DNA of 64,000 nucleotides from Escherichia coli (GTDB lineage Bacteria > Pseudomonadota > Gammaproteobacteria > Enterobacterales > Enterobacteriaceae). The DNA is taken from NCBI RefSeq assembly GCF_001677475.2, contig NZ_CP015229.1. The stretch is one strand, 5' to 3'. The translations under genes and the position numbers were made by a program. Shown here in pieces: positions 52,832-53,339 of this stretch. The notes under the pieces were generated by a model. That model had not been told where the DNA came from and ran no database searches. It saw only the letters and a list, made by a program, of their open reading frames with translations. Every line of letters begins with the position of its first letter. Position 1 is the stretch's first letter.

Positions 52832-52960
52832 ATGCCTTCTGGAAATCAGGAACCCCGCCGCGATCCTGAATTAAAACGTAAAGCCTGGCTGGCGGTTTTT
52901 CTTGGTTCTGCACTTTTCTGGGTGGTTGTCGCACTGCTGATTTGGAAAGTGTGGGGATAA
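52832..52960 (+). CDS. ymiA: Small membrane protein, about 42 aa (ymiA-like)
   Basis: ATG...TAA ORF read by eye (MPSGNQEPRRDPELKRKAWLAVFLGSALFWVVVALLIWKVWG); an in-frame ATG 12 nt upstream is an alternative start; coordinates approximate. Confidence 0.4.
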   Translation: MPSGNQEPRRDPELKRKAWLAVFLGSALFWVVVALLIWKVWG

Positions 52961-52962
52961 CT

Positions 52963-53130
52963 ATGGTCGGTCAGGAGCAACTGGAGTCGTCACCATTATG
53001 CCAGCATAGTGACAATGAACCAGAAACGAAACGGGAATGTTCCGTCGTTATTCCAGACGACTGGCAACTAACATCGCAGCAGCAAGCCTTTATAGAACTG
53101 TTTGCTGAAGACGATCAGCCGAAACAATAA
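52963..53130 (+). CDS. yciX: Small protein YciX, 55 aa
   Basis: Track ORF 52942..53130 (TTG start) trimmed to first ATG (MVGQEQLESSPLCQ...). Confidence 0.5.
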   Translation: MVGQEQLESSPLCQHSDNEPETKRECSVVIPDDWQLTSQQQAFIELFAEDDQPKQ

Positions 53131-53243
53131 TTATCATCATTTTTATTACCCATTTTTAATGAATTAAAGGGCTTTTAATACACCGCAGCAATAACAGGTT
53201 GAGTTATCTCAACACAAAGTCATAACCGTTAAGGGTGTAGCCT

Positions 53244-53339
53244 ATGATCAACACAAATATGAAATATTGGTCCTGGATGGGCGCGTTTTCTCTGTCGATG
53301 CTCTTCTGGGCCGAACTCCTCTGGATCATTACTCACTGA
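53244..53339 (+). CDS. Candidate 31-aa hydrophobic small protein (ymiC-like)
   Basis: ORF MINTNMKYWSWMGAFSLSMLFWAELLWIITH read by eye upstream of acnA; below the track cutoff; coordinates approximate. Confidence 0.3.
   Translation: MINTNMKYWSWMGAFSLSMLFWAELLWIITH

Follow-up and report, generated by a model that had tools for sequence, protein, structure and literature searches.

The cysB-acnA small-gene cluster of Escherichia coli and the known ymiA-yciX-ymiC operon

The three very small open reading frames lying between cysB and acnA in a stretch of Escherichia coli DNA of 64,000 nucleotides, here called the window, very probably correspond to the known ymiA-yciX-ymiC operon of this species. 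The observation of three reading frames is real, but not new: the genes are already annotated and experimentally confirmed. The current annotation, in which they are named, detected as proteins and placed in a stress regulon, gains nothing from it.

The frames are found where the initial annotation had located them (52832-52960, 52963-53130 and 53244-53339), and the 31-aa sequence is exactly as it was quoted there. The names ymiA and yciX given to the first two are correct according to RefSeq and, for ymiA, to family models, and the third peptide is the product of a named gene, ymiC. RefSeq features for ymiA, yciX and ymiC underlie the match in 5,382-5,421 of the 5,426 complete E. coli genomes, and the unit was named the ymiA-yciX-ymiC operon by Vellappan et al. 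(PMC11429745). With E. coli K-12 (ymiA, b4522; yciX, b4523; ymiC), the window shares the cysB-acnA locus, the gene order and the spacing. At 100% identity, YmiA and YmiC do not differ from their DH1/K-12 counterparts, and YciX is 98% identical, with a single differing residue (P20 in the window, T20 in K-12). Over a 1-kb stretch, the identity to K-12 reaches 98.8%, with differences at strain level only.

The idea of a co-transcribed micro-operon agrees with published reporters (PMC11429745), with the coupling junction between ymiA and yciX and with the single terminator located 3' of ymiC. Conversely, the remark that such peptides are rarely assigned functions is out of date for ymiA, yciX and ymiC, for which start-site profiling and tagging have been published. 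Ribosome profiling (retapamulin/Onc112) and epitope tagging, which the initial annotation had suggested as checks, are thus already in the literature with positive outcomes (PMC11429745, PMC6001520, PMC4909307, bioRxiv 10.1101/511675). The conservation analysis that it also suggested was run here and revealed a depletion of non-synonymous change only in the annotated frames of all three ORFs. The features of the locus are collected in Table 1.

Table 1. Coordinates of the features discussed, numbered from the first letter of the window
Feature	Coordinates	Strand	Description
PhoP-box-like direct repeat, degenerate (AGTTTC-TTTAG-GATTTG)	52741..52757	+	in the most conserved block upstream of ymiA
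Candidate -10 hexamer TATGAT	52767..52772	+	inside the conserved GATGATTAATT block; GATGAT in most relatives
ymiA CDS	52820..52960	+	RefSeq; 46 aa from ATG 52820 (MRLAMPSG...)
42-aa version of ymiA from the initial annotation	ATG 52832 to TAA 52958-52960	+	MPSGNQ...
yciX CDS	52963..53130 (TAA 53128-53130)	+	RefSeq 'protein YciX'; 55 aa, MVGQEQ...
Rfam RF02079 'STnc180' match	53171..53374	+	full-length model; 193.1 bits vs gathering score 50
Conserved intergenic element upstream of ymiC	53177..53213	+	block AATACACCGCAGCAATA (53177-53193), then stem-loop GTTGAG-TTAT-CTCAAC (53198-53213)
ymiC CDS	53244..53339 (TGA 53337-53339)	+	RefSeq 'small membrane protein YmiC'; 31 aa
Intrinsic terminator of the operon	53345..53373	+	GC hairpin then TTTTCATTT; terminator scan; begins 5 nt past the ymiC stop
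TGTTTGTGTTATCTTTA, context only	53433..53449	+	proximal acnA promoter block; downstream of the ymiC terminator, outside the small-gene cluster

Coding selection and the three small proteins

Loci for comparison were obtained from a scan of genome contigs with AcnA (about 15 Enterobacterales, the others being mostly distant Proteobacteria) and from exact-protein matches of YmiA homologues. The pN/pS ratios are pairwise and cover 13-15 Enterobacteriaceae; the frameshift-ridden assembly of C. koseri L089 was left out of the ymiA codon analysis. Purifying selection acts on all three frames, with ratios of 0.235, 0.55 and 0.37 for ymiA, yciX and ymiC, respectively, against 0.9-2.1 in the other frames. 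Orthologues occupy the cysB-acnA position in Escherichia, Salmonella, Citrobacter, Enterobacter, Leclercia, Scandinavium, Franconibacter and Superficieibacter, and in 15 loci from 8 genera ymiA directly follows cysB and precedes yciX and acnA. All six frames of the region contain numerous ORFs of 20-60 aa, which lends some substance to the view that the three are chance open frames of an AT-rich intergenic region. This view is countered by synteny, family membership, frame-specific selection and published protein detection, and we consider it next to impossible. The cassette is dispensable: the whole of it is deleted in E. albertii, two species of Citrobacter and a metagenomic relative have no ymiC, and Superficieibacter has no yciX.

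YmiA is a single-pass membrane protein with a basic cytoplasmic N-terminus, in which RR and KRK precede the helix (net charge +3). Its earlier description as a single-TM peptide is borne out by hydropathy, the transmembrane segment LAVFLGSALFWVVVALLIW having a Kyte-Doolittle mean of 2.54 over residues 20-38, and by published work locating YmiA in the inner membrane and GFP-YmiA at the cell periphery (PMC11429745). The protein matches Pfam PF22868 (YmiA-like; 115.2 bits, E 1.1e-33, cutoff 27) and the NCBIfam equivalog NF000536 (97.2 bits, E 3e-28, cutoff 30). The pN/pS of ymiA, 1.3 and 2.1 out of frame, is as low as 0.18 over the KRK and transmembrane part.

The initial annotation had the gene start at 52832, for a product of 42 aa. 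This start has to be moved upstream to ATG 52820 (46 aa), which is favoured by RefSeq, start-site profiling, a tryptic peptide and mass spectrometry. The shorter candidate is overturned by published tetracycline and Onc112/retapamulin start-site profiling and by the tryptic peptide LAMPSGNQEPR, which supports 46 aa over 42 aa (PMC4909307 supplement; bioRxiv 10.1101/511675). Targeted (PRM) mass spectrometry also gave 46 aa, with about 1,000-3,000 copies per cell (PMC12529367). In our comparison, ATG 52832 is the sole universally conserved ATG of ymiA, with a perfect GAGG (52822-52825) 6 nt 5' of it, and the 11 codons upstream display a pN/pS of 0.99. The comparative data are still compatible with the longer ymiA, because an in-frame ATG is found at codon -4 or -11 relative to ATG 52832 in every species.

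YciX is acidic, with a net charge of -9. No match was found in Pfam, NCBIfam, PDB sequences or the PADLOC defence-system models, and database proteins 96-98% identical to YciX bear the name 'protein YciX'. The two parts of the protein evolve differently, with a pN/pS of 0.32 in the C-terminal part and a near-neutral 0.77 in the N-terminal half, which is variable and probably disordered. A helix motif, IPxxWxLTxQQQAFIxxF, is conserved at the C-terminus, and P31, W34, L36, Q40, F43 and I44 are invariant among the last 25 residues. The AlphaFold model consists of a single confident helix at residues 38-51 (pLDDT about 90).

The initial annotation also described ymiA and yciX as overlapping by a frame shift. 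The two annotated genes are in fact separate, the ymiA stop TAA being followed by 2 nt and then by the yciX ATG. Only the mechanical ORF starting at TTG 52942 overlaps ymiA, and its extension is simply C-terminal sequence of ymiA in a different frame. Among the species compared, the ymiA-yciX gap measures 0-3 nt and the upstream TGGGG, formed by Trp-Gly codons of ymiA, is invariant (14/14). This motif likely doubles as a Shine-Dalgarno site for yciX, and its invariance together with the short gap would fit a termination-reinitiation coupling of ymiA to yciX.

In an alternative view, yciX has no functional protein and is a spacer, either translated through its coupling to ymiA or untranslated. 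This would accord with the lack of a family model, solved relative or defence-system match, with the near-neutral N-terminal half, with the loss in Superficieibacter and with the literature consulted, where direct detection of the YciX protein was not found. The conservation of the C-terminal 25 residues and their invariant positions, the confident helix modelled there, the start-codon position kept along with TGGGG in all 14 species and the frame open in each of them argue otherwise and make a non-functional yciX improbable.

YmiC is a single-pass membrane peptide with 4 Trp in 31 aa, hydrophobic over residues 12-30. The K-12 protein, identical in sequence to that of the window, was SPA-tagged and detected (PMC6001520), and YmiC was localised to the inner membrane, with start-site reads (Ribo-RET) induced in low Mg2+ (PMC11429745). 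It matches Pfam PF23694 (87.5 bits, E 4.5e-25, cutoff 27) and the NCBIfam equivalog NF041484 (66.3 bits, E 1.2e-18, cutoff 42), and an exhaustive search of representative proteins returned 10 matches, all YmiC-like. Upstream of the ymiC ATG, GGGTG (53233-53237) is the likely Shine-Dalgarno site.

YmiA and YmiC look like paralogues. Aligning their family profiles with hhalign yielded a probability of 91.7% and an E-value of 7.6e-7, a score reached by none of 600 column-shuffled controls, and one invariant transmembrane motif, K-W-F-S-LFW, is common to both. The two proteins may therefore be partly redundant. Overproduction of YmiA delays growth, with a long lag, and makes the cells longer; single deletion of ymiA or of ymiC has no phenotype (PMC11429745). 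Redundancy between paralogues would explain these silent deletions, and a double mutant or a deletion of the entire cassette would then be the informative knockout, in place of the single ones made so far.

Promoter and regulation of the operon

Published reporters assigned a PhoQ-dependent, low-Mg2+-induced transcription to a fragment upstream of ymiA and negligible activity to a fragment just upstream of ymiC. The PhoQ/PhoP-dependent induction upstream of ymiA was seen with reporters and RNA-seq, and in low Mg2+ the translation start-site reads of both ymiA and ymiC increased at least 3-fold (PMC11429745). No direct PhoP binding upstream of ymiA is reported in the text consulted (PMC11429745).

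Upstream of ymiA, TTAGGATT is invariant in 15 species, and a remnant of the conserved upstream block survives even in E. albertii. The degenerate direct repeat at 52741-52757 was compared with the PhoP-box consensus, (T/G)GTTTA-N5-(T/G)GTTTA, expected some 25 bp before the start site, at the -35 position. It agrees at 8 of 12 positions in E. coli and at 9-10 of 12 in several genera, which is no better than nearby AT-rich 17-mers. From the sequence, we propose this repeat as a candidate activator site of the operon promoter; the candidate -10 hexamer would set the transcription start near 52779-52782. A strict sigma-70 scan found no promoter on the + strand, as expected for an activator-dependent promoter devoid of a -35 element. 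In the Salmonella literature, yciX is listed under the Cpx regulon and not under PhoP, so that the regulation of the operon may be multi-input.

The ymiC segment, its terminator and acnA

The terminator that follows ymiC folds to -12.6 kcal/mol. A hairpin with a U-tract recurs in 12 species, and compensatory changes affect 3 of its 5 consensus pairs. Within E. coli it is polymorphic: the window carries GCGGCGGTTTTC where K-12 has GCGG-GGTTGTC, with a stronger stem and a poorer U-tract than in the window. In 1,037 of the 5,426 E. coli genomes (~19%, ST131-type), a 15-nt deletion has removed the 3' arm of the terminator and the U-tract.

No terminator was detected by the scan between yciX and ymiC. 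The conserved element of this spacer comprises the block AATACACCGCAGCAATA, found across 13 species, and a hairpin occupying the same position in 12 species with differing stem sequences (z -0.9 to -3.4 by per-sequence folding). RNAalifold returned no structure on the MAFFT alignment of the spacer, in which the hairpin arms are misaligned. The element could possibly mark a site of RNA processing, with the hairpin protecting the 5' end.

The window matches the full-length model of STnc180, a candidate sRNA of Salmonella, and the RNA so modelled consists of the ymiC coding region and the terminator. This raises the question of whether the ymiC region is a non-coding, Hfq-associated sRNA in which the 31-codon ORF is incidental, as the strong Rfam match (193 bits vs 50), the STnc180 cDNAs recovered by Hfq co-immunoprecipitation in Salmonella (PMC2515195) and the bracketing of the segment by a conserved 5' block with hairpin and a 3' terminator could suggest. 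We regard this as very unlikely. Selection is frame-specific (pN/pS 0.37 vs 0.92 and 1.49), the YmiC protein was seen by SPA tag and is membrane-localised, and the fold of the segment is not unusually stable compared with shuffles (z -1.42). The original Salmonella study itself observed bands of 500-2000 nt and judged them to be processed mRNA species (PMC2515195). The distribution of the family also follows the ORF: at the gathering score, RF02079 is found in 11 of 12 scanned loci that retain ymiC intact (the exception being L008) and in 0 of 4 loci without it (L002, L003, L006, L088). STnc180 represents the 3' part of the operon mRNA that contains ymiC, not an independent non-coding RNA, although a dual function of this RNA is conceivable. 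An Rfam 'sRNA' family that is really a small-protein mRNA should inspire caution in annotation pipelines.

The proximity of ymiC and the terminator evokes another possibility, that of a Trp-rich leader peptide exerting an attenuator-like control of the terminator and of read-through into acnA, without any functional protein. As in leader-peptide attenuators of the trpL, pheL and rhoL type, a short multi-Trp ORF (4 Trp codons in 31) lies just before an intrinsic terminator upstream of a metabolic gene, and its stop is 5 nt before the terminator stem, so close that a ribosome at the stop would mask the 5' arm. Moreover, a distal acnA promoter, described by Cunningham, Gruer and Guest in 1997, reportedly starts about 407 nt upstream of acnA, which we take to be near position 53097 of the window, inside yciX; ymiC would then belong to a long acnA leader. 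The earlier statement that the small ORFs lie within the acnA promoter region is right only with respect to this distal promoter and fails for the proximal promoter block, located downstream of the ymiC terminator.

Unlike leader-peptide attenuators, YmiC is conserved as a membrane protein without a run of regulatory codons, and acnA has its own promoter past the terminator. The Trp codons are scattered, none being consecutive, and selection bears on the whole transmembrane motif, beyond the Trp codons, a motif that YmiA shares. The ORF is intact in the 1,037 E. coli genomes with a deleted terminator, and acnA regulation is kept in Citrobacter species lacking ymiC. Neither the MFE nor the centroid fold offers an alternative, anti-terminator pairing with the terminator arm. 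Finally, the peptide accumulates and is membrane-localised (PMC6001520, PMC11429745). A leader-peptide role is for us an unlikely explanation, and we retain ymiC as the gene of a small membrane protein.

The cassette could also be viewed as a duplicated transmembrane-peptide module in which YciX stands between the paralogues YmiA and YmiC, and whose 3' terminator would gate acnA differently from lineage to lineage. We advance this combined reading as a speculative and rather doubtful one. If true, in genomes with a deleted terminator, transcripts begun at the low-Mg2+/PhoQP promoter or at any distal acnA promoter would continue into acnA, rendering aconitase A responsive to Mg2+ stress in ST131-type lineages and not in K-12. 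The loss of the terminator in about one fifth of E. coli genomes and that of the cassette in E. albertii provide natural contrasts for testing the function of the operon and its feed into acnA. Further downstream, the proximal promoter block TGTTTGTGTTATCTTTA is (near-)invariant in 13 species and was reported as a PhoP-binding site in Salmonella by EMSA (PMC10294627).

Proposed mechanism and related small proteins

According to the published reporters, the promoter upstream of ymiA is activated via PhoQ/PhoP at limiting Mg2+. The translation of yciX would proceed by termination-reinitiation coupling to ymiA, and the conserved intrinsic terminator ends the operon shortly before the proximal promoter of acnA. 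By analogy with other small proteins, YmiA and YmiC probably bind and modulate a larger inner-membrane protein in Mg2+/envelope stress. The acidic YciX would serve as a cytoplasmic partner through its single conserved C-terminal helix.

MgrB, MgtS, AcrZ, CydX and KdpF are small peptides acting by binding larger membrane proteins. YmiA and YmiC bear no sequence relationship to them, and partner-binding is for these two an analogy. Like YmiA and YmiC, they are single-pass inner-membrane peptides of 30-50 aa. The likeness goes further for MgrB and MgtS, which are also PhoQP-controlled and induced in low Mg2+, and whose long-lag phenotype is the same as that obtained by overproducing YmiA (PMC11429745).

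Three small genes between cysB and acnA

On the + strand around 52.8-53.3 kb of the window, topA and cysB are followed by three short ORFs and acnA. The initial annotation had placed the ORFs at these positions, which were borne out, and the peptide of the third is exactly as quoted there. The three genes, ymiA, yciX and ymiC, are real, co-located and coupled. Megablast found 52500-53510 in 5,421 of 5,426 complete E. coli genomes, with at least 80% covered in 5,382, and the RefSeq features beneath the match are cysB, ymiA, yciX, ymiC and acnA, the small products being named 'YmiA family putative membrane protein', 'protein YciX' and 'small membrane protein YmiC'. 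In strain DH1 the gene layout is base-for-base that of the window. The Pfam model PF22868 (cutoff 27) gives YmiA 115 bits and the NCBIfam model NF000536 (cutoff 30) gives it 97; for YmiC, PF23694 (cutoff 27) gives 87.5 bits and NF041484 (cutoff 42) gives 66. The Pfam and NCBIfam scans gave no matching family model for YciX.

Features of the cysB-acnA interval (window positions unless stated)
Feature	Position	Strand	Details
ymiA (42-aa version)	ATG 52832 - TAA 52958-52960	+	42 aa; pN/pS 0.235 in frame, 1.34 and 2.15 in shifted frames
yciX	ATG 52963 - TAA 53128-53130	+	55 aa; pN/pS 0.55 in frame, 1.05 and 1.14 in shifted frames
ymiC	ATG 53244 - TGA 53337-53339	+	31 aa; pN/pS 0.37 in frame, 0.92 and 1.49 in shifted frames
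Candidate degenerate PhoP box	52741-52757		AGTTTC-TTTAG-GATTTG; first conserved block upstream of ymiA
-10-like element	52767-52772		TATGAT; upstream of ymiA
Motif K-x3-W-x3-F-x2-S-x-LFW	52874-52924; 53262-53312		YmiA K15-W30; YmiC K7-W22
Conserved block AATACACCGCAGCAATA	53177-53193		yciX-ymiC spacer
Stem-loop after this block	53198-53213		position kept in 12 species; stem sequence varies between genera
ymiC terminator	53345-53373		GC hairpin and T-tract; starts 5 nt beyond the ymiC stop codon
15-nt terminator deletion	53356-53370; around 1150-1165 in the ST131 locus L091		

The comparison of synonymous and non-synonymous changes proposed in the initial annotation drew on cysB-acnA intervals of E. 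fergusonii, Salmonella, two Citrobacter species plus C. koseri, four Enterobacter, Leclercia, Scandinavium, Franconibacter, Superficieibacter and two further relatives. Taken from pooled pairwise Nei-Gojobori counts on codon alignments, with related sequences and not tree-based, pN/pS was 0.235-0.55 in frame against 0.92-2.15 in shifted frames, a contrast that is clear within these alignments. By region, it is 0.32 in the conserved C-terminal part of yciX and 0.77 in its N-terminal half, and 0.18 in the KRK and transmembrane part of ymiA.

Of the other checks suggested then, both start-site ribosome profiling and epitope tagging have been published (PMC11429745, PMC6001520). VanOrsdel et al. 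detected tagged YmiC, placing it between yciX and acnA with an identical sequence (PMC6001520). By Ribo-RET in media with versus without Mg2+, Vellappan et al. found YmiA and YmiC among 17 shortlisted small proteins with start-site reads at least 3-fold up under Mg2+ starvation; a reporter of the fragment upstream of the operon had PhoQ-dependent activity, one of the fragment just upstream of ymiC had negligible activity, and the unit is written ymiA-yciX-ymiC (PMC11429745). These reporter data and this assignment support co-transcription as a micro-operon, which is already published and not new. The published experiments put all three genes under joint PhoQP control at low Mg2+ and identify two of the products as inner-membrane peptides. 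YmiA and YmiC fused to GFP are membrane-localised, cells overproducing YmiA lag by 8-10 h and are longer, and single deletions have no effect (PMC11429745). A Salmonella transcriptome paper places yciX in the Cpx regulon (PMC6374596).

The ymiA start and its junction with yciX

While the initial observation was real as a whole, two of its details were not sustained: an overlap between ymiA and yciX, and the choice of the ymiA start. There is no overlap with the 55-aa yciX, as CT separates the ymiA TAA from the yciX ATG; one arises only with a mechanical ORF from TTG 52942, whose added residues are the ymiA C-terminus in another frame. The gap measures 0-3 nt in 14/14 species, and 5-8 nt upstream of the yciX start the Trp-Gly codons of ymiA read TGGGG in all of them; this is the arrangement that would be expected of translational coupling.

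The 42-aa ATG was at first favoured by comparative data, being the sole start conserved in all 15 species, with GAGG 6 nt upstream. The preceding 33 nt (52799-52831) are far more conserved than ymiA synonymous sites (pS 0.18 vs 0.68) and carry no coding signature, with a pN/pS of 0.99 over these 11 codons and the third codon position most conserved. Published experiments overruled this choice. Annotation starts ymiA at ATG 52820, giving 46 aa (MRLAMPSG...), and tetracycline profiling has its main initiation signal there (PMC4909307 supplement). The tryptic peptide LAMPSGNQEPR, cited for YmiA in the same supplement, argues for the 46-aa start, since a 42-aa YmiA is unable to give it. For Weaver et al., ymiA 'likely initiates with MRLAMP' (bioRxiv 10.1101/511675), and targeted mass spectrometry quantified a 46-aa YmiA at roughly 1,000-3,000 copies per cell (PMC12529367). 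The comparative data are compatible with these experiments because all species retain an ATG in frame, either at codon -4 or at codon -11, and both starts may be in use.

Control elements, variation and loss

Several blocks in the 230 nt before the ymiA start are conserved across 15 species, including AAGTTT(C/A)TTTAGGATTT(G/A)TCTCA, within which TTAGGATT is invariant, and GATGATTAATT. The PhoP box in the first block is one that we infer, since consensus scoring gives it 8/12 in E. coli, not separable from other AT-rich 17-mers. In some E. coli an IS1A element has inserted into the spacer between cysB and ymiA (462-1159 of L090, the PEC389 locus, and the genome matches H5 and H19); it lies >200 nt upstream of ymiA, and the conserved promoter blocks appear intact.

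No terminator was found between yciX and ymiC. About 30-65 nt upstream of ymiC, the AATACACCGCAGCAATA block and its stem-loop (53177-53213) may mark a site of processing, with the hairpin giving protection. Twelve species have a hairpin and U-tract after ymiC, and 3/5 consensus pairs show compensatory changes. This terminator varies among E. coli strains: the stem is -12.6 kcal/mol with TTTTCATTT in the window strain and -18 kcal/mol in K-12, where the TTGTCATTT tract is poor, and in ST131-type genomes a 15-nt deletion takes out the 3' arm and T-tract, an allele that a junction-spanning query found in 1,037 of 5,426 complete genomes. Directly downstream of the terminator, the proximal acnA promoter forms a block of very strong conservation. 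The window also holds, at 53433-53449, TGTTTGTGTTATCTTTA, nearly invariant across 13 species and reported as a site bound by PhoP in the Salmonella acnA promoter (PMC10294627); because it is downstream of the ymiC terminator, acnA may have a PhoP input independent of the small-gene operon.

The Rfam model RF02079 'STnc180' matches 53171-53374, that is the ymiC ORF and terminator, at 193 bits. STnc180 is annotated as an enterobacterial sRNA. At the gathering score it matches only loci with intact ymiC (0/4 loci without it), and the segment folds no better than its shuffles. Given this restriction in related loci, STnc180 looks like part of a small-protein mRNA that has been filed under sRNAs; the authors who discovered it had already suspected that it was a processed mRNA (PMC2515195). 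In the topA-cysB spacer (51221-51378), sub-threshold matches to STnc430 (26.8 bits, gathering score 47) and AaHKsRNA41 (25.8, gathering 97) are probably due to chance.

In E. albertii (locus L003, 2741-3001) just 260 nt separate cysB and acnA, and the equivalent of about 52787-53343 is gone. As the ymiA promoter remnant adjoins the ymiC terminator, all three genes were lost in one deletion. Additionally, ymiC is absent from two Citrobacter species and one metagenomic relative, and yciX from Superficieibacter; none of the three was found in the more distant Enterobacterales compared (Rahnella, Yersinia, Providencia, Photorhabdus).

Relationship and possible role of the peptides

YmiA combines a basic N-terminus with one strongly hydrophobic helix, and YmiC is barely more than a single helix. 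The two have an invariant transmembrane motif in common, spaced the same way in each, with YmiA K15, W19, F23, S26 and L28-F29-W30 corresponding to YmiC K7, W11, F15, S18 and L20-F21-W22. Cross-matches by tblastn are weak; profile-profile comparison (hhalign) gave a probability of 91.7% (E 7.6e-7, 22 columns), and its score of 28.7 was reached by 0/600 column-shuffled controls (maxima 18.4 and 24.1). YmiA and YmiC are thus probably paralogues, judging by these profiles, and flank yciX; the paper characterising both makes no mention of the relationship. It seems rather unlikely that this paralogy combines with a lineage-specific terminator loss coupling the operon to acnA. Among database proteins, P0096 is a natural YmiC-N/YmiA-C chimera, MINTNMKYWSW followed by LAVFLGSALFWVVVALLIWKVWG, joined at the shared motif, and P0106 an in-frame YmiA-N/YciX fusion; each is one record on a single contig, where rearrangement or assembly artefact is possible.

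YciX is acidic (net charge -9). AlphaFold modelled it from a 15-sequence alignment with a mean pLDDT of 69.9; confidence is low over the first 30 residues, and the one confident helix spans 38-51 (about 90). No relatives were found in PDB sequences or defence-system models. YciX might be a cytoplasmic partner acting through this helix. By analogy with MgrB, MgtS and similar peptides, YmiA and YmiC would modulate a larger membrane protein.
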